DNA of 64,000 nt. Source: an uncultured Planctomycetota bacterium (GTDB taxonomy: Bacteria; Planctomycetota; Planctomycetia; Isosphaerales; Isosphaeraceae). Where the stretch lies: contig CAWGMQ010000004.1 in assembly GCA_963823665.1 (NCBI GenBank), forward strand, positions 2,496,001 through 2,560,000, written 5' to 3'. Each line of letters opens with the position of its first letter. Within the stretch, counting starts at the first letter, position 1. Under the pieces are notes generated by a model, which ran no database searches, was not told the DNA's origin, and was given only the letters and a program-made list of their open reading frames with translations. Below, one piece after another: positions 1-48,200 of the stretch. Made by a program: the position numbers and the translations under genes.

Positions 1-260
1 GGGCTGCTGTCGAGCAAGTCGGACGAAACTGAGCGCTGTCCGGCTTCGTCGGCATCAAGAATCTACCGTCGTCGGATATTGGCCGGGAGTTCGGTGGCGA
101 TACCCGCGAATTGGGACCGTCGTCGAATCAGCGCCGGTCTGAGAGTAACGACTCAAGTTATTCTTAAGGAGATGTTTACGATCAACTCTCGCAGTTCGAG
201 ATTCTCAAGGCGGCGGGTTACTTACCCGCGTCTGTATTAGACGTAAACAATTGAAATAAA

Positions 261-473
261 ATGAGTTACAACACAAGAAGTGGAGGCGGCGGGAATTGCA
301 CCCGCGGCCCAATTTCCACAATTCTCTGTGCCACTTGTGGTTATGAAATGCGACCACAGGGCTGGCCGGAGCATGGCCGGGAGTACGAGGCACTCCGCGA
401 GCTGGTCGCAAACTGGCACCGCCTGACGGCTTCTGTCAGAACTGCCATCCTGGATCTGGCGCGTCCCTGCTGA
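261..473 (+). CDS. Small hypothetical protein overlapping the att site (CxxC ... LRELVANWHRL...AILDL); start uncertain
   Basis: ORF track. Resembles short ORFs often seen beside tRNA/tmRNA fragments in planctomycetes (from recollection, not searched). Confidence 0.3.
   Translation: MSYNTRSGGGGNCTRGPISTILCATCGYEMRPQGWPEHGREYEALRELVANWHRLTASVRTAILDLARPC
278..305 (-). repeat. att-like direct repeat, copy 1 (tmRNA 3'-end fragment: T-arm plus acceptor strand)
   Basis: AAGTGGAGGCGGCGGGAATTGCACCCGC is identical to 11665-11692. Its reverse complement GCGGG-TGCAATT-CCCGC-CGCCTCCA matches the tmRNA T-arm/acceptor pattern. Confidence 0.85.
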
Positions 474-722
474 CGGTCCGCGGAACGACGACTGCTCGGA
501 GTTGACCGGCGCATTGCTTTTTCGCGTCGCGCCGCGGGGTGGGTACACATCCCCAAGGCGATCAAGCGGTTGGTGCACGTTCACGAGACCTGGACATGCA
601 GGACGGGCGGGCCAGGGCGGGAAGCAACTGGGTGCACGGAAAAGCCAAGAATCGGATTCCAAGAAGTGAACCTGGAAAAGTAAAATAACAGGCGACTCTT
701 CGAGTATCGGGAGGGGACGGCG

Positions 723-935
723 ATGAATGACTTGACCTCGGAATCCCTTGCCAAACGAGTCGCGGCTTTGGAGAAGGAAATGGCGACGAAGCGGCTCGAC
801 CAATCTCGCAAGGATTGGCGCAAGGTCGTCGGCATGTTCCGCGACAGCGAATTCATGCGCAAAGTCGACGAGGAATGCCTGCGCGTCCGTGAGGCCGAAC
901 GGGAGGCGGCGCGGCGCGGAGAATTGGCCGAATGA
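723..935 (+). CDS. Putative antitoxin (70 aa)
   Basis: GGAGGGG RBS; DWRKVVGMF motif; its stop overlaps (ATGA) the start of a PIN-type toxin. Confidence 0.6.
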   Translation: MNDLTSESLAKRVAALEKEMATKRLDQSRKDWRKVVGMFRDSEFMRKVDEECLRVREAEREAARRGELAE

Positions 936-1057
936 TTCTCCTTGACACGGACCATAAAACGCTCTTGAAATACCCGGACAGTGAACGTGGCCGGCGCATG
1001 ATTGATCGACTCAACGCGGTGTCGGCTTCCGAGGTCATCGGTGTGGCAATTAATTGA
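932..1057 (+). pseudogene. Truncated VapC/PIN toxin (41 aa)
   Basis: Translates MILLDTDHKTLLKYP..., a PIN N-terminal LDTD motif, then stops ~30 bp before the convergent csx3 end. Confidence 0.65.
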
Positions 1058-1088
1058 AAATAGGTCTGAACCCGGGAATTCCTGGTAA

Positions 1089-1376
1089 CTAGGTCTGTCG
1101 GGGACGGAAATCGATATCAATCACCTGGCCTTCGCGCCAATTAGGGTGGTGCGATGCGACGACGACAGCACCGAGCCGGGGGTCAAAAACGGCAATCGCT
1201 CCGGCCGGCGATCCGTGCAGGCGGTGAAATGCCATGCCGTAACGCCAGACAGGGGCGCGGCCTTCGATGACAACCATTACCCCACGGGGAATCTCCGGCA
1301 GGGGCGGCAGCGGTTCGGCGGGAGTGATTGGCTGATTGACGCCGATGGAGTAGAACACGAGATCGTTCATGGTCAC
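1089..1376 (-). CDS. csx3: CRISPR ring nuclease Csx3/Crn3
   Basis: VVIEGRAPVWRY...H...AVFDPRLGAVVVASH signature; last gene of the cmr operon. Confidence 0.9.
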   Translation of the reverse strand: MTMNDLVFYSIGVNQPITPAEPLPPLPEIPRGVMVVIEGRAPVWRYGMAFHRLHGSPAGAIAVFDPRLGAVVVASHHPNWREGQVIDIDFRPRQT

Positions 1377-1382
1377 CGCCTG

Positions 1383-2552
1383 CTACGATTTGGGTCCATC
1401 CAGAATAACCTCGCGAACCGTTTCGGCGTCGTCCGCACGCAAGGCCAGCTCGCGTATCTGATCGCCGATCAAGATTCGGCACTGGTAGATGTCGGCTCGC
1501 ACCTGGAGTGATTCCTTCACCTTGTCCTCCTTGCCAAGCAAATTCGTTGCGGTCGTCGCCAGAAACGATCGGACCCGCAAGGCACGGAACTGGCGAGTGA
1601 CCGCTTCGATCTTGTAAAGGATATCCGCACCGGGATCATGGTCTTGTGATCCGGACTTGCATTCGATCATCGACAATCCGTGATTATGCATGAACGCCAC
1701 GTCGAAGTCGTTACCCGATGGGTCGCCGCATCGACCGACTTCCAAGCCGAGTCGGACGTCCCAAATTCCGAGCGAGTCAGAATGCCTCACCAGAAGAGTC
1801 CAGAAGAACACCTCCAACCAACCGCCTGTGAGGAATTCGACCTCATACTTGGTCAGTTTTCTGGTCGGCACGCCGTCGAGCCAGATCTTTCGAAGTTCGT
1901 CTTTCGCTTCACCTGGAAAACGAAACTTCTCCGCTGATAACTCGACGCCCTTTTCGCGTGCTTTTCGTCGCTCGTCATCGTTGAGTGACAGAATCTCGCG
2001 ATCGGTTGCGTGTTGCGCCAGGAGTTCGGCGGAGCGTGCCCCCTCAACCGCACGCCGTTCCGCCTCTGCCATCTTGTCGTCGGCTTTCCTCGACTCGAAG
2101 CCGTAACCCGCGAGGAACTCCTTGATCGAAAGCCTGTGGCTGCACTCTTGCGTTTCGCCGCTCTCGATGTCGATCAGAGATGCGGGCCGCACCACATTGG
2201 TATAGATCAAGTTGCCGCCAAGGGCCTTGAAAAACTCGTGGGTCGCGATGCTCATGGGCTTGGTGCCGCCAGTGAGATTGGCAATCCATTCAGCGGAGGG
2301 GAACTTGCCGTAGGCTCGCTGCAATGCCTGCCGCACAGCGGTGAGGTTGTCCTCGGCGGCGAGCGGCTCGATATGGTGTCGCGAGCCATAATCCAGATCG
2401 CCGTGTTTGAGCGCCTTCAAAAAATGGCTTGCCACTTCACGCTTCTTCATGTGATCCGACTCGAGCAATACGAGTTGATCAGGCTTGTAGTGATGCACCG
2501 AGAGCAGGTTCGGCACGTGCTGGTCGGAAAGGAGGCAGAATAGAACCTTCAT
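1383..2552 (-). CDS. CARF plus PD-(D/E)xK nuclease effector (Card1/Can2, DUF1887-like), 389 aa
   Basis: Start MKVLFCLLSDQHVPN; CARF motif NLTGGTKPM; nuclease motifs GGWLE...NDFDV...IECKSG. Confidence 0.85.
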   Translation of the reverse strand: MKVLFCLLSDQHVPNLLSVHHYKPDQLVLLESDHMKKREVASHFLKALKHGDLDYGSRHHIEPLAAEDNLTAVRQALQRAYGKFPSAEWIANLTGGTKPMSIATHEFFKALGGNLIYTNVVRPASLIDIESGETQECSHRLSIKEFLAGYGFESRKADDKMAEAERRAVEGARSAELLAQHATDREILSLNDDERRKAREKGVELSAEKFRFPGEAKDELRKIWLDGVPTRKLTKYEVEFLTGGWLEVFFWTLLVRHSDSLGIWDVRLGLEVGRCGDPSGNDFDVAFMHNHGLSMIECKSGSQDHDPGADILYKIEAVTRQFRALRVRSFLATTATNLLGKEDKVKESLQVRADIYQCRILIGDQIRELALRADDAETVREVILDGPKS

Positions 2553-2563
2553 CGATTGTCCCA

Positions 2564-3595
2564 CTACTTCTTTGATGGCTGTGGCCACTTGTACTGCGGC
2601 CTTTTTGGCTCGTCGACATGAACCAAGACATCCACGATGGCGCCAGGGATCGTGTCGATGCCCGAGGTCGGGGTGCCAACTGTGAGAGATCCTAGAGCAC
2701 GTCCCGGCTCGATATCCTGAACCTCGAAGCCGCCCTTGGGCCGTGAGGCGATGATCCGCACCTTGGCCTTTGCTCCGGAGGCTCGCTTCTTCGGCGGCGG
2801 CGGTGGAGGCGGGGGCGGAGGAAGGATGAGCCGCCCATAGCCACTTGTCGTCTTTCCGCCAATTCCCCACGCATCGAGAGCGTCGCACAGGAGCGAGAGA
2901 GCCAATTCCGACCAATTCTTGGCCTTGTTGCTCGTGGGCCCATGCCAGGACACGGCGACGCGAAACTCCCCCGTCACCGATAAGAACGGGATCGGGATCG
3001 GACTGTCGAAATCGGTCGGTGCGACGGAACCGTCCAGCCATTTCGGGTGGTGAGGCGTCATCACGTCCAATCTCAATGGCTCCGGTGACTTGGGCGTCAG
3101 CCACGCGTCGTGGAAGGTAATGCAGCCACTGTCGTCGGTCATGCCGAAGAGCAGTCGGTGATACATTCCTCCTTTCTTGAACTTTTCCTCCGTTGGCCCC
3201 CAGACCTGATCGCAATAGTGGGTCGCCAGGCCCTTGAGCGCCGAACCGGGTATGATCGGCATCCCGTAGGTGTGATGGAGACGGATGCCGGTTTCGATAA
3301 TGTTTTCCGAACCGAGGCCGACGATGAGGCGGCCCTGAGTTGTGAGGTCAATCGGCGCGGGATCCTTCGGAAGAAACGCCGACCAGCGGGTGAACGCGGC
3401 CTCGTAGAGGCCAATGAGATCACCGTCGCTCGCGGACTTGATCGCGGCATCGAGTATCTGTCGCTTGTGTTCGGGCTTTCCCTGATCGCCCGCGGCCGAT
3501 TCGTGCAGATATCGCTGGAGTAACAGTCCCGGATGCGAATCGTATTTGCCACGGTTTGGCATCAACGGGAGGAGCTGGTCGCGGATGGCGTTCAA
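2564..3595 (-). CDS. cmr6: Type III-B RAMP Cmr6 with a Pro-linker and C-terminal extension
   Basis: RLIVGLG...GMPIIPGSALKG...DVMTPHH...GIGGKTTSGYG; TTG start overlaps the cmr5 stop. Confidence 0.92.
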   Translation of the reverse strand: MNAIRDQLLPLMPNRGKYDSHPGLLLQRYLHESAAGDQGKPEHKRQILDAAIKSASDGDLIGLYEAAFTRWSAFLPKDPAPIDLTTQGRLIVGLGSENIIETGIRLHHTYGMPIIPGSALKGLATHYCDQVWGPTEEKFKKGGMYHRLLFGMTDDSGCITFHDAWLTPKSPEPLRLDVMTPHHPKWLDGSVAPTDFDSPIPIPFLSVTGEFRVAVSWHGPTSNKAKNWSELALSLLCDALDAWGIGGKTTSGYGRLILPPPPPPPPPPKKRASGAKAKVRIIASRPKGGFEVQDIEPGRALGSLTVGTPTSGIDTIPGAIVDVLVHVDEPKRPQYKWPQPSKK

Positions 3596-3981
3596 GATTC
3601 GCCCTCCGTCGTATCGTCCGGCGTCGCGGCCTCTACGTATCTCTTCAGCCAGCTCGCGGCGTTGATGGCATCTCGGCTGAGGCGAAGGTAGCCTGTCAAC
3701 TGTTGTGTCCGCGCGTGCTGGTCGAGCGAGTCTTGTCCGGTCATCTCGGAATGATCGGCTGCCCTCAGAACCTCTGTCAAATCGGCGATATAGTTCGCCT
3801 GCTTTTTGGCCCGCGCAAACGCCACCGCCTGGGCCAGGCCGCAAGTGTGGATCAGAGCCGGAAACTTCTTGGCGAAACTGACATACTCCTTATCTGGATT
3901 CTTCCGCCCGCTGTTGGTGTGCAAGGCGATTCTCGCATAGGCGGCTTGCGCGAGCTTCTGACTTCGAGTGTGAACGCTCAT
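3592..3981 (-). CDS. cmr5: Type III-B small subunit Cmr5
   Basis: FPALIHTCGLAQAVAF...WLKRY motif; located between cmr4 and cmr6. Confidence 0.9.
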   Translation of the reverse strand: MSVHTRSQKLAQAAYARIALHTNSGRKNPDKEYVSFAKKFPALIHTCGLAQAVAFARAKKQANYIADLTEVLRAADHSEMTGQDSLDQHARTQQLTGYLRLSRDAINAASWLKRYVEAATPDDTTEGES

Positions 3982-4874
3982 GCCTGCGCCTCCGTGAAGA
4001 CGCAGCGGACTTGCCCGCGGCCGACGGTCGCTTTGCCGCCGATCTGGAGCGTGAGCGGGTCTTTGGCGAACCGATCGAGCAGCCCTGTCGGAGTGATGTC
4101 TTCGCCGTCACGCCCGAAAACCCGATCGCATTGGACGACGCCGGATAGGATTGTCTCGGCCGGTATCGATTCCTCGGTCCACAATGCCCCTTTCGCCACG
4201 ACTTTCAACTCGTCGTCGATCCTCACGCGCGTATGCACCTCGGTCCCGGTCTCGCAGAGGAAGTCGAAAGCGCTGTCAGGCAGCACGACGAACCGCCTCT
4301 TGAATTGCTCTTGCCAGGCGCTGTCGTCGGGGAATACCCAGGCGGCGATTTTCGCGGCCCACGCCGTCGCGATCGGACATGGTCTTGCATCGAAATCCAG
4401 GTCTTCAAGATAGACACGCTTCTCTTCCGTGAGCGCTGTCTTCGTGTTGCCCTCGTCGAAATGGTGGGCGTTCGTGTCTGCCAGACTCGAAGGGGCCTCG
4501 GGGAGATCAGGCACGCCGGCCAGGTCGAGCGTCCGCCTCAGCGTGTGCAAGCACAGCGCTGACGTGGTCCAGGCGAAGGTGCCGCGGAAGCTCCGAACCG
4601 GCAGACAGACAAGATGCGCATCCGTTGGGATCAGCGCACCGGAGTTCGCTGATTCGCCTTCCTGATCGGCGCGGCCGAAAGCCTGCTGGACGTTCGCCAG
4701 TTTCTGTTGAACAGCCCAATCGCGCCAGACCCCCTTGAACGACGATCCCCGGATGATCGGCCAGCCTGTCACGCCGTCGCGGTCGATCGGAAGGTCGATG
4801 TACCCAACGCCCCGGCCGATCCCGGCATGGGTGGGACTGAGGGCATGAAGCCAGTAAATCCGCGTACCCATCAT
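3978..4874 (-). CDS. cmr4: Type III-B RAMP Cmr4 (target-RNA-cleaving subunit)
   Basis: THAGIG..G.IDLPIDRD (catalytic Asp present), GALWTEE, QIGGKATVGRG. Confidence 0.95.
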   Translation of the reverse strand: MMGTRIYWLHALSPTHAGIGRGVGYIDLPIDRDGVTGWPIIRGSSFKGVWRDWAVQQKLANVQQAFGRADQEGESANSGALIPTDAHLVCLPVRSFRGTFAWTTSALCLHTLRRTLDLAGVPDLPEAPSSLADTNAHHFDEGNTKTALTEEKRVYLEDLDFDARPCPIATAWAAKIAAWVFPDDSAWQEQFKRRFVVLPDSAFDFLCETGTEVHTRVRIDDELKVVAKGALWTEESIPAETILSGVVQCDRVFGRDGEDITPTGLLDRFAKDPLTLQIGGKATVGRGQVRCVFTEAQA

Positions 4875-4900
4875 GATAAGTTCCCGTGATGTACTCGTGC

Positions 4901-6133
4901 CTACCAGGTTCCCCAAAGGGATAGTCCGAAGCCGTCGCGGCAGTCGTGAGGTGCGTCGCTAACAGGCTTTAGCCAGCCGTTAGTGGCCAGGATGCGCGAA
5001 TCACCATCGACTTTCTCGAAGAAGTAAACGCCGCCGGCCGGCACCATTCCGCGAATCGCTTTTGGGCCAGGTCGATCCTGAGGAACGACGCGGCGGCGGC
5101 CGTCTTCCTCGGCGTGCGGTGCATAAGCCCAGCCGGAAACCGCACGCCAGCGCGCAATGCAGACACCCACCAGCTTAAGCGTCGGCCCATCGCCCAGCGG
5201 CTTGCCGATCAGCGTGGTTCCGTCCAACCAGCCTGGCCGCCAGCCGTGCTCGAAGATGGCCGGCGTGGCAAGCACCATGCGAATTCTGCTCGCGTTTTGA
5301 AGCGCCGATTTAACGGTTTCTGAGCACTTCCAGACGGCCACTGAATCGTCGCGTTGCCAGTGAACAAGGCGTCGCTCGCCGCCCAGCGGGTGCCAGGTGC
5401 TGAGTTTGTCCACGTGCTGGAACGCTCGCTCCGCGATCGTTACCCGAGCCGAAAGCGTAATCTCGGCGAACCGGTCGCCCAATGGGAGTTTCTGGTCATC
5501 CGACTTCACGCCATGCCGAGGCAACTGTGCCACGTTCAATCCTGCCGTGGAGAAGATTTGGCCTTCCGCGGCCGCTCCCCTGTCAGCGTCGAGACAGACG
5601 TGATCGCGGATTTCTTGGAGCCCGGCATTGAGGAATTCCCGATCGAATGCCACCGGCTCGCCAACAAGCCATTTGGCAATCTCTCGGGCCGGCCACCACG
5701 CTGGAATTGGCTTCGGCTTGAAATCTTCCTCGGCTTGATCTTCAGTGAGCATTACGGGGTGTAGGCGCAAACCGTCGGGGAAGTCGCACCCGGTGAAACT
5801 CGGTTGCGGGGTCAGACGATGTACTGCCTTGACCGCCCTGCCGTCCTCGGTCGGCTCGGCGACGGCGTCGCTCGGCGCGGGCAGATACAACTCCTGGCCG
5901 ACCCTCGGAAACAGGCCGGCCACCTCAACGCGAAGCACGTCGAGCGGCGTGTTTCTCGTGAAATCGAGCGCCGCATTCGCCTTCACGAGCGCCGTGCGGA
6001 AGGACCCGGCTACTACAGACGGCAATGGCCAGCTAAGGCCGCGCATGCGGTTGCCCTGGCCGATTCCAAAAGGACGCCCATCGCGCGCGATGATCGGGTC
6101 GTGGGCCGTCAGTTGCAATGTGGTGACGCTCAT
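4901..6133 (-). CDS. cmr3: Type III-B Cmr3
   Basis: DPIIARDGRPF, LGGERR, LATPAIF, VPAGGVYFF, DGFG. Confidence 0.92.
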   Translation of the reverse strand: MSVTTLQLTAHDPIIARDGRPFGIGQGNRMRGLSWPLPSVVAGSFRTALVKANAALDFTRNTPLDVLRVEVAGLFPRVGQELYLPAPSDAVAEPTEDGRAVKAVHRLTPQPSFTGCDFPDGLRLHPVMLTEDQAEEDFKPKPIPAWWPAREIAKWLVGEPVAFDREFLNAGLQEIRDHVCLDADRGAAAEGQIFSTAGLNVAQLPRHGVKSDDQKLPLGDRFAEITLSARVTIAERAFQHVDKLSTWHPLGGERRLVHWQRDDSVAVWKCSETVKSALQNASRIRMVLATPAIFEHGWRPGWLDGTTLIGKPLGDGPTLKLVGVCIARWRAVSGWAYAPHAEEDGRRRVVPQDRPGPKAIRGMVPAGGVYFFEKVDGDSRILATNGWLKPVSDAPHDCRDGFGLSLWGTW

Positions 6134-7851
6134 GTCGCCGCCTCCAAAACGGGAGGCGGAAGCTCTCCCGCTTGCCGCAAGGCCGCGTCAATCTGACGGG
6201 CAACGAGCAGTTCCTCCGCCAAACCCAACAGCTTCGCCGAATTCATCTCATTGAGATAGCCGTCAAGTGCCTGCCGCACCGTATCGACCCCGCGCGACTG
6301 CTTTTTGGCGATCAACCGAATCAAGTCCATCCTGATCGCACTATCCGCGTGCTGTTGCCACGGTTCGTACAGTCTGGCCATGGTGCGCAATTCGTAAGGC
6401 AGCTTCGTGGGAATGATGCCCTTGTTCATCAACTCGGCGAACTTGGCCAATCGCACATCAGGATTGTCGCTCCACCGGCCCCGCATGCGAATCGGCGCGC
6501 CGCCGCGCTTATGTAAGTGCACGGCCAATCCATCGCGATCGGGCTCCTTGGCCGCTTTTTCAGCCGCTCGCCCGTAGCCGAGAAGGTCTTCCAGGTTCTC
6601 CATGAAGTGGCCGATCGCGATGCCAACGGAGAGAGTTGGAGGCGTCCCTTCCTCGTTCTTGTAATGGTTCAACGATTCGCCGAATTTATCGTATAGTTCT
6701 CTCGCGCATTGCAGGCACTTGTCCACGGGCAGGAACGCCAGCACGTCGTCGCCGCCGGCGTAGACGAGCACACCATTGTGGTCGTTGACGATTTTCTTCG
6801 CTTCGTCCGCGAACCCGGCCAGGGCCATGGAGAACTCGCGATGCTTTTCTGGTGAGCTCAAAGCGGAAATGGCGGCTCCCATCTTGTCGCCATCGGCCAC
6901 GAGGATGGCGAGATAGGGATTGGGGTCGCCACCAGCGTCCATCAGAGCCTCGGCGATTTCATTGAGATCTGTGTCGCGCAGCCCGAGTTCTTTTTTCAAA
7001 TCGGCGTGCCGATCCTTGTAGATGATCGAGCCTTCATATGGGAAATACTGATACTTTTCTTCCTGGACAGTGTTCAGTCCTTTGGACACGAGCTTTTGAC
7101 ACGCATTCTTCAATCGCGCGAGTTTGTCGCGATCCCGGGTTTGAACGCCTTGCAGCCATGTCTCGGCCGCGACTCGGGCGACCGAGGAATATCGTGGATT
7201 GCTTTGCCCTTGTTCTTTGCCGAGCCGCTTCGTAACCCCAACGACGTCAAGTTGTTCGCCGGGTGAGAGTCGAAGCTTCCTGGGCCAGTGGTCACGGTAG
7301 GTCTCTCGCGATTCTCCTGGCTTCGGTCCGACGAGCACAGTTGGGCGTTGCCCATCGAGCGACGACTTGGGGAGCCCAGCGTCATTGAAGCCAGGCTGCT
7401 TGAAATCGCGGCAGTTCTTCCGGCCAGCCAGCAAACGCATCAGTGTTTTGCGATCCTTGGAGTAGCTGCCCGACCCTTTGACCCACGCCGCATAGAACTC
7501 GATAACGTCATCTACCTGATCGCTCCAGATCTCGGGACGAATCACACCAGGCGTCTCTTGCCGGGCCTCCTCGGCGAACATGCGCCAGCATTGCTGGGCT
7601 GATTGCTTGGCCGCCGCGGCCACGTCCTTGGGTTCACCGGTGGGCAACTCGCCCACGACGACGTTGGCAATGCTCCCGGCATGCGACGACGCGGGAAAGA
7701 TCAATCGGCCGTCCCCCTGCTCGACCCTTTTCGCCACGGCCCGGCTAATCTCCGAGAGCAGATACGAGCCGAACCACAGATCGCGCGTCCGCCGCGCCGC
7801 CGCGATAAATTCCTGCACCGGGCCGACGGAGATCGCAATAAGGTGGCTCAT
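6130..7851 (-). CDS. cas10: Cas10/Cmr2 (573 aa, no HD domain, intact GGDD)
   Basis: Begins ISVGPVQEFIAAARRTRDLWFGSYLLS; ADGDKMG and YAGGDD palm motifs. Confidence 0.95.
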   Translation of the reverse strand: MSHLIAISVGPVQEFIAAARRTRDLWFGSYLLSEISRAVAKRVEQGDGRLIFPASSHAGSIANVVVGELPTGEPKDVAAAAKQSAQQCWRMFAEEARQETPGVIRPEIWSDQVDDVIEFYAAWVKGSGSYSKDRKTLMRLLAGRKNCRDFKQPGFNDAGLPKSSLDGQRPTVLVGPKPGESRETYRDHWPRKLRLSPGEQLDVVGVTKRLGKEQGQSNPRYSSVARVAAETWLQGVQTRDRDKLARLKNACQKLVSKGLNTVQEEKYQYFPYEGSIIYKDRHADLKKELGLRDTDLNEIAEALMDAGGDPNPYLAILVADGDKMGAAISALSSPEKHREFSMALAGFADEAKKIVNDHNGVLVYAGGDDVLAFLPVDKCLQCARELYDKFGESLNHYKNEEGTPPTLSVGIAIGHFMENLEDLLGYGRAAEKAAKEPDRDGLAVHLHKRGGAPIRMRGRWSDNPDVRLAKFAELMNKGIIPTKLPYELRTMARLYEPWQQHADSAIRMDLIRLIAKKQSRGVDTVRQALDGYLNEMNSAKLLGLAEELLVARQIDAALRQAGELPPPVLEAAT

Positions 7852-9167
7852 CGGGGAACCTCAGAGAAACCTTCGTTTCGGGCAAACGCGAGAAACGCTT
7901 CGAGTGCTGAGCCATTGGGCGATCCGGCGAGTGGTGAATTTGGATAACTCGCCAACGTCGGGGCACTGATCGTTGCTGATGGCGGGACGGGAAGCGATTT
8001 GTCCCCGCGTCGTAGATCGACTCCACTTAACAATTCTGTCTTCAAACGCAAAATGAGCGGGATTGCGTTGCCGTCCTGCAAGACCAACGGCTTAAGAATC
8101 AGTGGACTCGCCATCCGTTCGCGTTTCTCGTCGTCGGGGCCCGCGGAGGGGTAGAGAACTGTGTCTTGCGGTTCTCCCTGTCCTTGGAAGTGAAATACGA
8201 TCGGCAAACCGAGCTCCGCGCGGGGGAACGCGTCATCGGGAATCTGCGAAACTCGAGCGTGTTGAGCCGAACGCTGGCCCGTGATCCGACGAATCGTCTC
8301 AGGCTCGGGATACCGTGATCGCCCCGGTCGGTTTGGCTGTTGTCCAGGATTGCGAGCGAACCCACCCCCTTGCCGGAAGTGCTTGAATCGTCCCATCAGC
8401 GAATCCCAAACCTGGATCGGATCACCGGCTGGTTCCGTTCTTCGGACTAGCGTCCACTCGCCAATTGTCGGCCATTCGCGGCCTTCTATCCGATGAGATG
8501 TGAATTGATTCAACTGTTCCGCGAAGTGGCCGTGATCGCGTGGAGCAAGTTCCTTGCAAAGAATCGCCCCGCAACCGCGGCGAGTCCGGGCGCCCAGGCC
8601 GCCGAAGTTGAGCCATGCCCAGAGCGCCGGCTCGACTTGCGGCCAAAGATCGTTTGGGCAGTGCAGGCTCAGGCGGAAGCTCGCCTTGCGTATGCAGGCG
8701 GCGGGCACGACCTCGATCTGTTCCCGTCCCTTTGCCAGTTGCCCCTGAAATGGGAACAAAGCGTAGGAAAGAGACGGCCGGTTGAACGGCTCGATCCAGG
8801 TTGGCGTTGATTTATATTTATGCGTTGTGCTGTCAACCTCGAACCTGGCACACGGCTCCGGTTTGCCAACCTGCAGATTCTCCACGAGCACCCGCACCCG
8901 GCTCGCTCGCTCGGTAGAGCCCCAGATTTTCGATTGGTTGGCCCGCAGTTCCTGCCGCGTCGCATACCGCGCCCCGACGGTCGCTCGCCACCAGAACTGC
9001 AATTGACCCCGAATCGCCGTGGGCCGAAGGGGAAAGCTCTGGTCAGTGACGCGCGTCTCGACGCCGCCCCCGAACATCGGCGTTATCAATTTGATGTCAA
9101 AGCTGCGCCCGCCGTCGACCGTGGGCTTCTTCCAGTCAATCGGAACGTCTGGTATCTCTCGCGGCAC
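7848..9167 (-). CDS. cmr1: Type III-B RAMP Cmr1
   Basis: ITPMFGGG, IRGQLQFWWRA, FGGLGARTRRGCG, RAELGLPIVF, RMASPL; GTG start with GGAGG RBS. Confidence 0.93.
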   Translation of the reverse strand: MPREIPDVPIDWKKPTVDGGRSFDIKLITPMFGGGVETRVTDQSFPLRPTAIRGQLQFWWRATVGARYATRQELRANQSKIWGSTERASRVRVLVENLQVGKPEPCARFEVDSTTHKYKSTPTWIEPFNRPSLSYALFPFQGQLAKGREQIEVVPAACIRKASFRLSLHCPNDLWPQVEPALWAWLNFGGLGARTRRGCGAILCKELAPRDHGHFAEQLNQFTSHRIEGREWPTIGEWTLVRRTEPAGDPIQVWDSLMGRFKHFRQGGGFARNPGQQPNRPGRSRYPEPETIRRITGQRSAQHARVSQIPDDAFPRAELGLPIVFHFQGQGEPQDTVLYPSAGPDDEKRERMASPLILKPLVLQDGNAIPLILRLKTELLSGVDLRRGDKSLPVPPSATISAPTLASYPNSPLAGSPNGSALEAFLAFARNEGFSEVPR

Positions 9168-9718
9168 GCGTAGTCCCTCCGCTGCAACCTCGTCGTGGGC
9201 GGTGAACAAGGGCTCCGGTCAAATGCGGGACGGAGGCATTGAGCTAGGTGACGGCGCGGCCGCAGCGCTACGCGCGGACCACACTGCGAACCTGTCCGTC
9301 TTCTCCGGAACCGGAATAGATCAGAAACATTGTAGCCATGCAGGGTTCGAGCGAATATCCAGTGGATTGAATTTGAACCGGGCAACTTCGGCCGCGAAGG
9401 GGAGTTGCGACCAGCACCGCAAAGAACCCTGTCCGGCGTTCCCGGCATTCGAACCATGAACGTGAACAGAAGGAACTTGATTTCGAGCAGAAAAGCTCAC
9501 AGCCATTTCCGGCGATGGGCCTTCATCGAAATCTAGTCGGGGCGAGAGAACGGCTATCGAACTTCTTATCGCCGGAGTCCTGGGCAGGGAAGCCGGGCCG
9601 CGGCGTGTTCTTATCCGAGAATCAGATGACGATCGAGCGTGACGATTAATCCCAGACTCCGCAGGCTCGGTGGGCTTTGGGCCCGGAAGAGTCTGCATGC
9701 TCCCCGGCAGGGTGAGCC

Positions 9719-10201
9719 TCATCGCTCGGACCGCTTGACCTTGCGAGTCGCTGCCGCCTTGCGACCAGCGGCTTGCCGCTTCTTGGTTTGGACGGCCTTC
9801 GCCGCGGCTGCCCGCCGCTCGCGAGTGGCCGCCGCCTTGACTGCCGCCTCGCTTCGGCGGCCGCCGAGTTTGATGAGGGTGAACGGCTCTTCGCCCATGC
9901 CCTCCTCCGCACCCTTAATCCACAACTGGACCTTGGACCGTTCTTTCCAGTCCTGGGCTTCGATCACCTCGATGAAGCCGTCGATGTCGAAGTTCTTGAA
10001 ACCGCCCCCGTAAAGGTTGGCGTCCATCCCGTATCCCGCGCCTTCCTCGTAGGTCGGGCCGATCAGGCTGACCAACCGGCAGGGCGACAGCCAAGTGTTG
10101 ATCCGCTCCATCGGCTCGCACGTGTCCCGGGCCTCATCCTCGCCGTCCTCCCACAGCTCCTCATTGTCAAAGGAGATCATGACGTTCCACACGAAGCCCA
10201 T
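9719..10201 (-). CDS. Hypothetical protein (acidic domain plus basic KAAATR-repeat tail)
   Basis: AAGGAG RBS, clean 160-aa ORF, co-oriented upstream of cmr1. Confidence 0.75.
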   Translation of the reverse strand: MGFVWNVMISFDNEELWEDGEDEARDTCEPMERINTWLSPCRLVSLIGPTYEEGAGYGMDANLYGGGFKNFDIDGFIEVIEAQDWKERSKVQLWIKGAEEGMGEEPFTLIKLGGRRSEAAVKAAATRERRAAAAKAVQTKKRQAAGRKAAATRKVKRSER

Positions 10202-10219
10202 CGGTCACACTCCTTCATA

Positions 10220-10597
10220 TCAAGCGGTTCCACTTGCATCGTCGGGATCGTGCTCGCGGATGCGGCCCACTCCAACGATCCACAATTTTCCCTTCACCGA
10301 GCCCGTTTTCAGGTGTGCGATCACGCTCTACAATCTCGCCCGAATCGGCGAGTGCACCGCTTTCGGAGGACGCACAACGACAATACCTTCGGAATCTTCA
10401 GGTGGAAAGCCGAGCGAGTTCGAAAGATCCAGATCGACCGTCACCACGGTTCGACCGACCGCTTTGCAGGTGTCTTAGATCGCTTCGTCCGTGCTTCCCG
10501 CCAGACCTTCGGCGATTACCGTAGCCTCGTCGAAGCCCTCCTTGAGCAGTTCCGGCACGAGCCGCACATCGAAGTTTTCATCGAGTTTCAGCTTCAG
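10220..10597 (-). pseudogene. DUF5615 PIN-like toxin pseudogene
   Basis: LKLKLDEN...DEAI*...VVTVDLD...GIVVVR; two in-frame stops. Confidence 0.8.
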
Positions 10598-10847
10598 GCT
10601 GACACCGGTTCCGTAAGGATCGGAAAGATTCGTTCGCGTGACATCTCCGCGGCAAAAGCTAATGCCGCTCGAATGTCCTCGGGCCTGAGTTGTGGATAGC
10701 AGCAAGCAATTCAGCCTACGGGATGCCTTCCGCGAGATTGTCGACAACCAGTGACACCCATATTCGCGTGCCCCGGATCACGGGCCGGCCAAAGCAGACA
10801 CCCGGATCAATCGAAATTCGCGTGAGAAGTTCGTTGCGGTCGTTCAT
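10594..10847 (-). pseudogene. DUF433 antitoxin pseudogene
   Basis: RISIDPGVCFGRPVIRGTRIWV...; TAG at 10716-10718 plus a frameshift before YPQLRPEDIRAAL. Confidence 0.85.
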
Positions 10848-11160
10848 GGTCGATAGGCCCGAGCTGATAATCGCCGTCCAATTCGGGAAATGGACTTCTT
10901 GGTTCAGCGTCGATCCGAGCATCTTATCCCATGATACTATGCCCATGAAAGTTCACCGCCGTGGGAACTCGGAATAGTCGAAACGGGCGGCGGGATTTGA
11001 ACAGCGCAAATGCACCGCCCGCCGTCAGGTTGCGTCGAACTTGGCGTGCTGCAATAAGGCCGACCAGGATGAGCTGAACTGAATTGAACCAGATCGAGTT
11101 GCTGGATTATCCAAGGAATAGGCCCACCGCCATTCCCAGCGAAGGGCTTTCGCGATAATC

Positions 11161-11194
11161 AAGTCTGGGGCGGCGGGATTCAACCCACGACCTC
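11161..11194 (-). pseudogene. Degenerate tRNA(Pro-like) 3'-half fragment
   Basis: GTCTGGGGCGGCGGGATTCAACCCACGACCTC resembles a reverse-complemented tRNA T-arm/acceptor. A weaker copy lies at ~10975-11002. Confidence 0.5.
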
Positions 11195-11272
11195 ACGCAC
11201 CAGACCCGAGCGGATCGTTCCAGAGTTGCGGCACGCTCGCTGACGATCGCAAGGTTGCTGGTCTCTGCGACG

Positions 11273-11381
11273 CCCAGACGACGGGAAGTGGGCGCTTATC
11301 GGGCGCGATCACCTCCTCCTTTCCGGCTCCGACCGCAGGCACGATCCCAGACGACGGGAAGTGGCGCTTATCGGGCGCGAT
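11273..11381. repeat. Two 36/37-bp direct repeats separated by a 36-bp unique segment
   Basis: CCCAGACGACGGGAAGTG(G)GCGCTTATCGGGCGCGAT at 11273-11309 and 11346-11381. Confidence 0.85.
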
Positions 11382-11632
11382 AGCCAAAGCTCAGCGCTCG
11401 TCCGCCGCATCAGCTTCGAAGAGCGGTGACGGGCCGGGTATAGGCCGGGACTCCAGACGCGAGGCGGGTCCATCACAACATGCCTTGGCTCAGAGTTGTT
11501 CCGTTAGCAATCCCTTTAACTTGTTTTTGGCGAAATATTTACGGCAAATGTCCGCAGATTGATACACTCAAGGGCGGCGGGTAAATAACCCGCGTCCCTC
11601 GGCGAGAATGAAATGACGCAAACTCAATGACG

Positions 11633-11659
11633 AAAATCACTTGCGAACTATCGCAAGTG
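11633..11659 (-). terminator. Hairpin terminator-like element just 3' of the tmRNA-like end
   Basis: Minus strand CACTTGCGA-TAGT-TCGCAAGTG then ATTTT. Confidence 0.5.
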
Positions 11660-11664
11660 CCTTC

Positions 11665-11692
11665 AAGTGGAGGCGGCGGGAATTGCACCCGC
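11665..11692 (-). repeat. att-like direct repeat, copy 2 (tmRNA 3'-end fragment)
   Basis: Identical to 278-305. Confidence 0.85.
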
Positions 11693-11762
11693 ATCCTGCA
11701 TTCCGCTTTTTAAGAATGGCGGCTGTGCGGGACTCTCTCTCTCGCCCAAACCACGAAAGCCG

Positions 11763-12287
11763 TTAGTTTCCGCGGCGACGCGCTGGCTTATGGGCGTGGG
11801 AATGATGGTGGTGGCCGTGGTCGTGATCATGATCATGCGGATGTTCTTGCCCGGCCTCACCGTTCGCGGCAGGTATGGGCTTGGCCGATGCAAGCACGAG
11901 GCGGCCGGTTTCGACGCCTTTGGTGCCGATCAGATCGTCGGCCAAGCTGCGAACCTCCCGCGCGGGGCCGCGCAGGAGAATCACTTCCAGGCAGCGACGC
12001 GCGTCGAGATGGACGTGGGTTGTTGTCACGACCTGGTCGAGATGGTGGTGCTGGAGGTCGGTCAAGCGCTGCGAGATTTTCGAGGCGTGGTGGTCGTAGA
12101 TCAAGGTGACGACCCCCATCGCTTCGCTTTCGTCGTTCGTGATCACCTCTTCGAGCAAGGCGCCCCGCATCAAGCCGCGGACCGCTTCACTGCGGTTGGG
12201 ATGTCGATGAAGCTCGCGATACTGATCAAATTTCTGGAGTAACTCTCCGCCGATCGCCACGCTGAAGCGAACCATGGGGTCTTTCAC
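11763..12287 (-). CDS. nikR: Nickel-responsive regulator NikR with a His-rich tail
   Basis: RFSVAI..NRSEAVR..YDHH..LQH..HVHLD..CLEV; tail HPHDHDHDHGHHHHSHAH. Confidence 0.9.
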   Translation of the reverse strand: MKDPMVRFSVAIGGELLQKFDQYRELHRHPNRSEAVRGLMRGALLEEVITNDESEAMGVVTLIYDHHASKISQRLTDLQHHHLDQVVTTTHVHLDARRCLEVILLRGPAREVRSLADDLIGTKGVETGRLVLASAKPIPAANGEAGQEHPHDHDHDHGHHHHSHAHKPARRRGN

Positions 12288-12377
12288 GGGGCGTTCTCCT
12301 GTGCGCGGCACGGCCGGATGAACCGAGACCGACCGACGACAAAGAGCGGCTGGTTCTCGTGGCTGAATGTGATGGTG

Positions 12378-22553: not shown

Positions 22554-22636
22554 GGCCTCGTGGCGGAATGGCAGACGCGTCGGTCTTAGGAGCCGGTGTC
22601 CGTAAGGACGTGGGAGTTCGAGTCTCCCCGAGGCCA
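22554..22636 (+). tRNA. tRNA-Leu(TAG)
   Basis: Acceptor GGCCTCG/CGAGGCC, anticodon loop CTTAGGA, long variable arm, TTCGA T-loop. Confidence 0.95.
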
Positions 22637-23052
22637 CTCGAGGAACGCCGTATGGCGACACTGGTCGTCCAGCTCATATGGCTCAACTATAGGAATTCAT
22701 TTGACACCAGTCATCGCCGCGGTAGTATAAAGATCAGGATAGTCCTGCCCCGCGTCGTCCCAGTCGAGACGCATTGGCTCGGGTTGGCGCCGATCTGTCG
22801 GCCCCCCAAGAGCGCGACGAAATCCTACCGTGTTGCCCATCGATTCCGGACGGTCTTCTGACCGCTTTACGACAGCTTCACGGACGAGTTTGCCTGCTTC
22901 AGCATGCAAGGCCCCGCTTCGGCCTTGAGGGAAGTGCGTTCCTGCGGTCGGGGCGGAAACTCGACGGCAACTGGTTCCTCATGCGATAATCGTGCTGGCC
23001 AGCGGCTGGGGCGACTCAGAGAGATTTGACCGGAAAAATCGGTGGCGTCATC

Positions 23053-45200: not shown

Positions 45201-48200
45201 CCGGATCACCACGACGATCTACGACGAGATGGGCCGAGTCACCGAGACGGTCGATCCACTAGGGCGTGTGACCACGACGATTTACGACCGCGACGGCGAG
45301 GTGACGGAGTCGATTGACCCGATGGGCCGCGTCACCACGACGTTTTATGACGAGATGGGGAGAGTCACCGAGGTCATCGACCCGATGGACCGCATTACCA
45401 CCACGTTGTACGACGCGGATGGTGAAGTCACGGCGGTGATTGATCCAATGGGTCGCGTCACGACGACGCTGTACGACGCGGATGGCGAGGTCACGGCGGT
45501 GATCGATCCGATGGGTCGGGTCACAACGACGATGTACGACTTGGATGGCCGAGTCACCGCGACGATCGATCCAATGGACCGCATCACCACCACGTTGTAC
45601 GACGCGGATGGAGAGGTGACTGAGTCGATCGACCCGATGGGTCGGATCGCGACAACGATTTACGACCTGGATGGCGAGGTGACTGAGTCGATCGACCCGA
45701 TGGGCCGGATTACCACAACGGTCTACGACAAAGACGGTGAAGTGACGGAATCGATCGACCCGATGGGTCGGATCACGACAACGGTTTACGATCTGGATGG
45801 CGAGGTGACCGAGTCGATCGACCCAATGGGCCGGGTCACGACAACGGTCTACGACAACGACGGTGAAGTGACCGAGTCGATCGACCCGATGGGTCGGGTG
45901 ACGACGACTTTCTACGACCTGGACGGTGAGGTTACGGAGTCGATCGACCCGATGCGGCGGGTGACGACGACGTTGTATGACGCGGATGGCGAGGTCACCG
46001 AATCGATTGATCCACTGGGCCACATGACAACGACGCTGTACGACGCGGACGGCGAAGTCACTGAGACCATGGATCCGCTGGGTCACGTAACCACGACGCT
46101 GTACGACGCGGACGGCGAGGTTACGGAGTCGATCGACCCGGTTGGGAACGTGACGACCGCGCTGTATGACGCGGATGGCGAGGTCACCGAGACCATCGAT
46201 CCGCTGGGCCACGTGACCACCACGCTGTATGACGCGGACGGCGAGGTGACCGAGATCATCGACTCGATGGGTCGTGTGACGACGACGTTGTATGACGCGG
46301 ACGGCGAGGTGACCGAGTCGATCGACCCCTTGGGCCGCGCGATGACGAGGGTGTACGACGCGGATGGTGAGCTTACCCAGACCATCGATCCGCTGGGCCA
46401 CGTGACCACGACGCTGTATGACGCGGACGGCGAGGTGACCGAGACCATCGACCCGATGGGGAACACCAGCACGACGCTGTACGACGCCGATGGCGAGGTC
46501 ACGGAAACCATCGACCCCTTGGGGCACATCACGACGACGCTGTACGACGCGGATGGCGAGGTGACCGAGATCATCGACCCCCTGGGGAACATAACGACCA
46601 CGTTGTACGACGCGGATGGAGAGGTCACCGAGTCGATTGACCCGTTGGGGCACATCACGACGACGCTGTACGACGCGGATGGCGAGGTCACCGAAACGAT
46701 TGATGCTCTGGGACGTACCATCACCTCGCTCTACGACGCCGATGGCCGCTTGATCAGCGAGACGTGGGAGAACTCGAGCGCAATCGTTACCAACCTCGAG
46801 ACCTACACGTACGACGCCGACGGCGATCTCCTCACGGCCGGAGATTCGAACGGCACGTACACGATGACCTATGACGCCGATCGACGTCTTATCACCACTG
46901 AGGATCCGTTCGGGCTCACCCTGACCTATACCTACGACGCGGATGGGAACCGGACGGAAGTGCAGGACTCTCTTGGTGGGGTGACGACCTACGTCTACGA
47001 CGCCGACAACGAGCTGACGAGCGAGCGGTTCGACAGCTCCAGTCAAGGCCCCTTGCGCATCGATATGACTTACGACGCCGATGGCGAGATTTTGACCGAG
47101 AGCCGCTACAGCGACCTGGCCGGTACCCAGCTCGTGGTCGAGTCGAATTACACGTACAACGCCGACGGCGAGATCACGACCTTAGTCGATCAAAACGGCG
47201 GTGGCACGATCGTGGCCAACTTCACATATACCTACGACCAGGACAACCGTGTCACGACCGAGGTGAACATGGGGATGACCACGACTTACACGTACGACGC
47301 GGACAGCCAGTTGACGAGCGACGTATCTCCCCTCGCCACGATTGACTACACCTACGATGCCGGCGGCAATCGGACCAGCAACAACAGCGTGATCGGCCCG
47401 GGGAACCAGCTCCTTTCCGACAACGACTGGACCTACACCTACGACGCCGACGGCAATCTGATCGAGAAGGTCGGGGTGTCCACCGGGCCCGACAAGGGCA
47501 TCACCTGGACCTACACATACGACAATCGCAATCAGATGACGACTGCGGTGGAGGTGCAAGGGAGCACGACGCTGGCGAGTGTTACCTACACGTACGACGT
47601 CTTCGGCAACCGGATCGAAGAGGATTCTTCGGGCAGCACGCTGCCGACCCAGGTGACGCGGTTCGCTTACGACGGCCAGAACGTATGGGCCGATCTCGAT
47701 GGAAGCAACAACCTGGTGATGCGGCGGCTGTTCCTCAACGCTCTGGATTCGGTGATAGCGCGGATCTCGGCCAGCGGCACCGTGGCCTGGTATCTGGTGG
47801 ACCGACTCGGCTCGGTGAATGTCCTGACCGATGCCACGGGGGATGTGATCGACCGGATAACTTACGATGGTTACGGCAATGTCATCAGCCAGACGAACCC
47901 GTCGGCCAGCGATCGCTATATGTTCACCGGGCGCGAATTCGATCCGATCACGGGCTTACAATACAACCGGGCGCGATATTACGACCCGACCAGCGGTCGA
48001 TGGACGACGCCCGACCCGGCGGGATTCGCCGCGGGTGACACCAATCTTTACGTTTACGCGTTCAATCAGCCGACGGACCTCCTCGATCCCTCGGGTGAAT
48101 GGGAGACAGATGCACACAACGCCTTGATTGACGCGGCATTTCCCGAGAGTCAAACTCTTCGAGAGATATTCAAGGAGGCGAGCAAGGGCGTGGATGCTCT

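Follow-up and report, generated by a model that had tools for sequence, protein, structure and literature searches.

How could a type III-B CRISPR effector that brings no guides of its own, and no recognizable integrase, function and spread? This question is raised by a 64,000-nucleotide stretch of an uncultured Planctomycetota bacterium of the family Isosphaeraceae (assembly GCA_963823665.1, contig CAWGMQ010000004.1, positions 2,496,001 to 2,560,000), here called the window (G000:C4:2496001-2560000), from a source genome (G000) of 16.46 Mb in 12 contigs that is 91.9% complete. Near the left edge of the window, an operon of cmr1, cas10, cmr3, cmr4, cmr5, cmr6, Card1 and csx3 lies between two direct repeats. 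The account that we consider probable is that the operon encodes a standard III-B effector lacking an HD domain, carried by a non-autonomous (cis-mobilizable) cassette of the type that uses ssrA, the gene for transfer-messenger RNA (tmRNA). The Cmr module probably borrows its guides from the other CRISPR systems of the host, judging from the gene content of the genome.

The eight genes are all on the minus strand and were identified with Pfam and NCBIfam models without internal stops, confirming the uninterrupted operon read in a first-pass annotation of the sequence.

7848..9167, minus strand: cmr1, with a GTG start at 9167 set by comparison with homologues
6130..7851, minus strand: cas10/cmr2, 573 amino acids (aa), GGDD cyclase motif intact, no HD domain
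4901..6133, minus strand: cmr3, by PF09700 (E 2.5e-58), the TIGR01888 score being under the cut-off
3978..4874, minus strand: cmr4, by profile match and an aligned Asp
3592..3981, minus strand: cmr5, by Pfam and NCBIfam
2564..3595, minus strand: cmr6, by TIGR01898
1383..2552, minus strand: Card1/Can2 CARF-nuclease effector, about 389 aa
1089..1376, minus strand: csx3/Crn3 ring nuclease, by residue alignment

The gene content of type III-B, cmr1, cas10/cmr2 and cmr3-6, was found in this single operon (cmr3 by Pfam), and the module is interference-only, as had been proposed. Cas10 begins at Cmr2_N and gave no match to the HD domain, which is optional for type III; its gene was the sole PF22335 match genome-wide. 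Cmr4 retains an Asp aligned with the N-terminal Asp of solved Cmr4 chains, which we take to be the catalytic residue. The closest solved relatives of the Card1 gene product are Can2 and Card1; its CARF and nuclease domains are present, and Csx3 retains residues aligned to H57, H60, D69, R71 and H80 of the A. fulgidus enzyme, completing a module for cyclic tetra-adenylate (cA4). Because Can2 is reported to be activated by cA4 (PMC7969007) and Csx3 to degrade it (PMC7371418), the two accessory genes form a coherent pair. Among 1113 type III loci surveyed in PMC11229360, 39% have the HD domain and 143 have Can1-2. The accessory genes vary among related Cmr operons (L089:4289-8449, L162, L165, L174), which have Card1, an APE2256-type CARF protein, TPR-containing open reading frames (ORFs) or unlabelled ORFs upstream of cmr1.

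Among the 17 ORFs scanned there was no match to cas1, cas2, cas6 or an integrase, and genome-wide searches placed no cas1, cas6 (PF10040) or PF00589 integrase at the Cmr site, the nearest PF00589 integrase being about 298 kb away. No CRISPR array was found within 80 kb to the left of the cassette, so that an array with cas6 immediately left of the window, the case that would have overturned the first-pass annotation, is absent. These searches agree with its list of missing parts. Many III-B systems are described as lacking cas1, cas2 and cas6, and often arrays, and III-B has been shown to use I-F CRISPR RNAs (crRNAs) (PMC5576922); it is also stated that Cas6 apparently acts in trans for the majority of type III systems and that III-B loci are mostly array-less (PMC12669027). 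The state seen here is the usual one for III-B and not a distinctive trait, and the CRISPR part alone is ordinary. A degenerate or regulatory mini-array upstream of cmr1 was considered and rejected, as nothing was conserved across the upstream regions compared.

The locus is bounded as follows.

278..305, minus strand: left attachment (att) core, a copy of the ssrA 3' end, with inverted 5-bp arms around a 7-nt T-loop
11665..11692, minus strand: right att core, a copy of the ssrA 3' end, some 70 bp beyond the stop codon of nikR and without an ssrA body upstream
261..473, plus strand: integrase C-terminal tail, a 70-aa ORF that reads through the att core and has no catalytic domain
209..269, minus strand: end of the neighbouring cassette (unit B), with a 28-bp dyad (242-269) and a pseudo-core (209-232)
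11573..11664, minus strand: integrase-less cassette end, with a hairpin/dyad and a pseudo-core (11573-11596) that has att-like arms and a different 7-nt centre
11763..12311, minus strand: nikR, core-genome flank, where synteny with the sister species G001 restarts

The 28-bp direct repeats at 278-305 and 11665-11692 were 100% identical, as first noticed, and the chance of this in 20 kb was estimated at about 1e-9. Read as the reverse complement, they are the 3' end of the intact tmRNA genes in this genome. The motif has 12 genomic copies, four of them within 25 kb here (C4:2483108, 2491201, 2496280 and 2507667), showing that three units are stacked here and that the Cmr cassette comes first; the cargo of the other two comprises an ECF sigma/kinase/TPR/PEP-CTERM set and a 2135-aa DUF11 protein. 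The earlier description of the repeats as tmRNA ends thus holds for the repeats but not for the site. No ssrA gene was found at the Cmr site (window, ARAGORN and Rfam), the three full-length tmRNA genes are on other contigs (G000:C10:360462, C10:422392 and C8:2039527), and the stack sits at an ectopic site, away from ssrA. That the right repeat might end a tmRNA, real or permuted, was considered too; neither ARAGORN nor Rfam gave one in the window, and the covariance-model score there was only 16 bits. The 7-nt T-loop is likely to be the crossover region, as placed by the point where ssrA identity stops. The cassette has att repeats at both ends, tandem neighbours, and no integrase or transfer genes, which is the make-up of a cis-mobilizable element in a tandem array. 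An intact tDNA at one end, typical of Islander-type islands, was not found here and was found in G106, which among the genomes with a whole operon is the nearest relative; of an own integrase gene, only the tail is present.

The tail allowed us to name the cognate integrase family. The 70-aa ORF matched the tails of proteins whose upstream part is the catalytic end of a tyrosine recombinase, with the att core translated in frame. Full-length homologues are mostly PF00589 integrases of about 440-500 aa; the att-encoded peptide was present in 33 of the 120 listed homologues (265 found), and an intact tmRNA lay right at the integrase C-terminus in 19 of 25 fetched integrase loci. In the integrated state the integrase ORF extends into antisense ssrA, and at island-island junctions it extends into a tail of the type seen in the window. 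Integrases that extend across attP are known from Mx8 and SSV (PMC4383910). When the integrase was aligned to the window, only the tail matched. After the broken stub of this family in G000 (below), the next-best integrases were 35-37% identical, and several of these end at tRNA genes. No recombinase family was recurrent among the cassettes in ORF clusters of 24 loci or in Pfam scans; the recurrent cargo consisted of sigma/kinase modules, toxin-antitoxin pairs and hydrolases.

Furthermore, the cassette ends have a conserved anatomy. The left junction was matched in 42 of 121 family genomes, often repeatedly at 2-12-kb spacing. Across the 91 distinct junctions in the fetched loci, a sample picked by similarity that includes kin, the core consists of two inverted 5-bp arms and a 7-nt centre, the centre being identical in 79; pseudo-cores keep the arms and change the centre. 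A 28-29-bp dyad lies 10-12 bp before the core in 35 of 62 non-ssrA ends versus none of 29 ssrA ends. On the integrase-less far sides the dyad follows the core in 31 of 68 cases and a pseudo-core is present in 34 of 68, compared with 0 of 23 integrase-bearing sides; shuffled flanks, the control for these counts, gave 0.06-0.26%. Because the motif definitions were taken from those same sequences, the counts describe conservation and are no independent test. The dyad presumably resembles the IHF consensus. As to a reading of the dyad as a Xer/dif site, prediction of dif is reported to have failed for Planctomycetes (PMC3025954). Positions 11120-11664, which form the right arm of the cassette, could be aligned to four further cassette ends, one of them the end that lies behind ssrA in G106.

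Comparison with relatives indicated recent movement. Leftwards from nikR, G001, a sister species in the same genus as the source, is syntenic over about 57 kb, with 79-87% identity. In place of the 25-kb stack of G000, G001 has 5.2 kb of unrelated DNA without att, and in G008 nikR is followed by opcA. These relatives lack the operon here; a clean empty allele joining 305 to 11693, which the first-pass annotation had proposed to look for, was not found. On contig C8 of G001 the region from csx3 to the end of cas10 is identical at 5216 of 5339 bases (97.7%), with att and the tail at the csx3 end, and this copy lies within a part of G001 that matches G000:C3 at 77-93%. At third codon positions G000 and G001 were 86-99% identical in six operon genes and 56-72% identical in the flanking core genes nikR, gfo, zwf and opcA. 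Since the identity of the operon is far above that of the core genes, these alignments indicate recent horizontal transfer of the operon between the two species. Within cas10 the G001 copy gives way to 4.4 kb of phage-like DNA of 40.5% GC at the contig start (G001:C8), which may reflect a chimeric assembly or a real insertion. In G106 the operon is 72-73% identical and lies about 690 bp downstream of an intact ssrA near smpB, with the same arm as in the window.

If the operon travels without guides, crRNAs would have to come from elsewhere in the cell. The source genome has two cas1 loci, one type I-B-like on C8 and one type I-G on C10. The former, its subtype called from cas6b/DevR/cas5/cas3 content, has an intact cas6b and 125 repeats; the latter has csb1, csb2, cas8g, cas4/1 and 128 repeats. 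The repeats have the 3' ends ATTGAAGC (I-G array) and ATTGAAAC (I-B array). Type I arrays and a processing enzyme are co-resident with the Cmr operon, cas6b being intact and csb2 frameshifted in the assembly. There was no match to either host repeat in positions 1-12000 of the window with up to 13 mismatches allowed, and host spacers matched the cassette island and the fetched loci only partially, over 17-21 nt. A third large array was considered and rejected: a pattern of three TTGAA-type handles gave 259 matches, of which the two known arrays can explain about 247-249, and 6 among the matches listed were coding repeats. C8 also has an orphan partial cas6 (G000:C8:1185858); after it come a Uma2 gene and the cas6 3' end once more.

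Selected flanking ORFs were scanned at 21 related Cmr loci, comprising 7 from family genomes and 14 of 26 further loci (of the 26, 5 were the same as family genomes and 7 other short ones were excluded). Three loci were beside I-G genes, two of these on the same strand and directly upstream (L165, L168); L173 was beside an I-G-like array, G054 was beside a full I-C locus, G005 had a Cas6-domain gene and 15 had none of these, a result that is weak in places because several contigs are short. Relatives of the operon thus adjoin I-G more often than Cas6. G054 is a single-contig genome with its related Cmr operon by the type I-C array and one cas1; three models found no Cas6 or intact Csb2 there, and it is a candidate for a Cmr fed by Cas5c. 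A precedent for Csb2 comes from H. ochraceum, whose genus we take to be Haliangium. Its cmr1-6 genes were expressed with csb2 for interference (10.1101/2023.06.23.546230), and Csb2 is reported to give an 8-nt 5' handle (PMC9638904). This precedent, the handle and the I-G adjacency in related loci made us lean to I-G over I-B as the donor. By approximate figures, supply by I-G and Csb2 falls a little short of an even chance, supply by I-B and Cas6b is possible at a distinctly lower level, the use of both is unlikely, and the use of neither is less likely still. Hence the idea of borrowed crRNAs and Cas6 gains two candidate donors in the host, with the correction that the donor may be Csb2 and not a classical Cas6.

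Described systems share parts of this arrangement. The III-B module of Marinomonas mediterranea, which uses I-F crRNAs (PMC5576922), and that of Sulfolobus islandicus REY15A, as cited there, likewise have Cmr1-6 without cas1, cas2, cas6 or an array and are co-resident with type I systems, and array-less, Cas6-less III-B modules appear in the classification of PMC12669027; unlike these modules, the one here sits on an att-bounded cassette and has I-G (Csb2) and/or I-B (Cas6b) as its likely donors. The H. ochraceum III-B system (10.1101/2023.06.23.546230) resembles ours in a Cmr programmed by Csb2-processed crRNA, which here would be predicted from gene content, and is described with SAVED-CHAT and PCaspase effectors, whereas the cassette has Card1/Can2 and Csx3 with csb2 on a separate contig. 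The nearest mobile HD-less III-B system is VmeCmr of a Vibrio metoecus prophage, which as described (PMC8682760) also has an HD-less Cas10 and no adaptation genes on a mobile element, but comes with cas6f and an array of its own and uses cA3/NucC; neither cas6 nor an array is present on the integrase-free cassette. The tandem ssrA islands of Dehalococcoides (PMC3146451) are similarly bounded by ssrA 3' repeats, with a recombinase ORF over att and some islands recombinase-less; 15 lack integration modules, and the paper suggests possible cis-mobilizable elements. Those islands lie behind ssrA and use a serine recombinase, in contrast to the tyrosine integrase, the stack off ssrA and the conserved dyad and pseudo-core ends found here. 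Islander-class tDNA islands (PMC4383910) share a tDNA 3' fragment that marks the end and an integrase ORF that crosses att; Islander filters would reject the Cmr cassette because they need a full tDNA and an integrase. In the literature consulted, mostly non-subscription papers without their supplements, we found no account of the cassette family or of Cmr in this bacterial family, and supplementary catalogues of III-B loci or islands may already list this Cmr clade.

These findings suggest the following working scheme. Cmr1-6, Card1/Can2 and Csx3 are encoded with intact key residues, and Cmr would be loaded with crRNAs from the host type I arrays; binding of target RNA would then lead to cA4, upon which Card1/Can2 would degrade nucleic acid and Csx3 would clear the cA4, as is established for such components. 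The ends correspond to att sites of the ssrA-inserting tyrosine integrases of about 476 aa whose ORF runs through the att core, and the cassette keeps both cores and the integrase tail without the integrase. The operon has moved recently from species to species; the cassette would move, alone or stacked, whenever an autonomous ssrA island provides the integrase, and the stack would have landed at a secondary site behind nikR.

Several observations weigh against this scheme. No intact cognate integrase was found in G000, G001 or G106, and of the family G000 retains, on C11, just a 3' stub that is interrupted by a stop and a frameshift; as the helper integrase survives in the assembly only as this stub, the cassette is probably parked. 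The earlier claim of mobilization in trans is thus upheld as to a recent move and a nameable integrase but not as to mobilization in the present-day genome. Identity to G001 is only 86% at the left end against 97.7% over the operon, with the switch at the vapC deletion, from which it follows that cargo and ends have also recombined. Neither an empty att site nor a circle junction was found at the relatives' sites or in public runs: contigs of four runs cover the operon piecewise, none spanning it. A joint of 117 to 11663 in a public run was rejected, having a 30-nt side only and probably belonging to another cassette; two public RNA runs contained only 0.09 of the words. tmRNA was near only 1 of 26 related, more distant Cmr loci, confining the ssrA link to the closest relatives. 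On the side of the guides, csb2 of G000 is spread over three reading frames and the I-B cas3 is split; because the gene next to the native ssrA is also split relative to the G106 version, long-read errors are plausible, and the breaks may be such errors or real damage. G106, in 620 contigs, is without cas1, cas6, csb1/csb2 and cas8c by the models used, leaving its operon with no visible donor.

Part of this evidence would fit stranded fossil ends, in which the att copies are scars and no longer substrates, and cmr spread by homologous recombination between shared ends or within a larger element. The mosaic identity to G001, the broken helper, the greater divergence of cmr5-cmr6 than of cmr3-cmr4 from G001, the occurrence of the same tail-plus-vapBC end on unrelated cargo in other genomes, and a right arm with a local duplication and extra tRNA-type remnants all point that way. 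However, both cores are perfect and have the 7-nt centre common to most junctions, the spacing of dyad and pseudo-core is fixed over many genomes, and the operon occurs in an att-bounded context at three loci (G000, G001 and G106), leading us to regard fossil ends as rather unlikely. It is much less probable that the operon is what remains of a III-B locus that was once complete and in this lineage lost its cas6, cas1/2 and array by deletion: G005 has its Cas6-domain gene about 1-3 kb after its operon, the orphan cas6 is on C8 of G000 and the island has suffered further deletions, but 20 of the 21 related loci scanned have no cas6 nearby, the region upstream of cmr1 contains neither a cas stub nor a conserved mini-array, and published surveys describe most III-B loci in this state (PMC5576922, PMC12669027). 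The frameshifted csb2 and the donor-less G106 could also mean that the module is silent or guide-less in its host, with no compatible crRNA, and merely hitch-hikes; all eight genes are nevertheless intact while adjacent island genes decay, and the genome has two large arrays with canonical handles as well as an intact cas6b, so that this idea, too, seems improbable to us.

Beyond the non-autonomous cassette that we favour, the ssrA integrase of these planctomycetes could conceivably have given rise to an integron-like cassette system, a speculative proposal to which we give a small chance. The att core, the 28-bp dyad 11 bp away and the second core with another 7-nt centre would provide two non-cross-reacting crossover sites per junction. 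Cassettes would stack at or off ssrA and be cut, shuffled and exported when an autonomous island that passes through supplies the integrase; the C-terminus of that integrase would be exchanged for the tail carried by each cassette. As plug-in cargo, the Cmr operon would adapt to the type I guide factory of each new host (Csb2, Cas6b, perhaps Cas5c).

The locus offers a well-dated case in which a complete type III effector has crossed from one species to another with no guides, arriving in hosts that differ in their type I systems, making the promiscuity of Cmr for crRNAs made by Csb2, Cas6b and Cas5c testable. For the integrase-free cassettes, a family widespread in these planctomycetes that integrase-dependent island finders reject, it also provides a named integrase and a defined att anatomy. 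If the ends are active, they would be a candidate for site-specific integration in a phylum where genetic tools are few.

The remainder of the interval contains the following features.

723..935, plus strand: probable antitoxin, 70 aa, VapB-like by position only, no Pfam match; 95% identical in G001
932..1051, plus strand: PIN/VapC stub, truncated by a deletion of about 340 bp; the intact 142-aa PIN gene is present in G001
9719..10201, minus strand: orphan ORF of 160 aa, no match in Pfam, NCBIfam or ESM Atlas
10475..10946, minus strand: DUF433 and DUF5615 pair, both partial matches (relic)
11162..11200, minus strand: tRNA-type T-arm/3' remnant, conserved in other cassette ends, with a weaker one near 10985-11005
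11273..11381, no strand: local duplication (two 36/37-nt copies), not a CRISPR array, by comparison with homologous ends

We take the DUF433/DUF5615 pair to be toxin-antitoxin-like, and the remnant at 11162-11200 presumably resembles tRNA-Pro. The close resemblance of the two T-arm remnants to the ssrA core suggests either a second related att family or cross-reactivity. The duplication at 11273-11381 was examined as a mini-array and rejected, as its two copies occur at one genome site only and the unit is single-copy in all 4 homologous cassette ends.

Among the native tmRNA genes, the two on C10 flank a 62-kb mobile region (resolvase, ArdC, DUF499, McrBC), and the C8 copy, next to smpB, encodes a tag peptide that differs slightly. 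Behind one C10 copy is a 579-aa protein with a C-terminal helix-turn-helix and an AAA ATPase, preceded by short repeated motifs, an island end of a different kind. Near the left edge of the stack (G000:C4:2480872), a cluster of short intergenic repeats is shared with G001 and is not CRISPR-like. Farther along the window, the tRNA-Leu(TAG) at 22554-22637 belongs to the core genome, and long coding repeats at 45400-46700 and 57300-59000 are, we presume, YD/RHS-like and glycine-rich.

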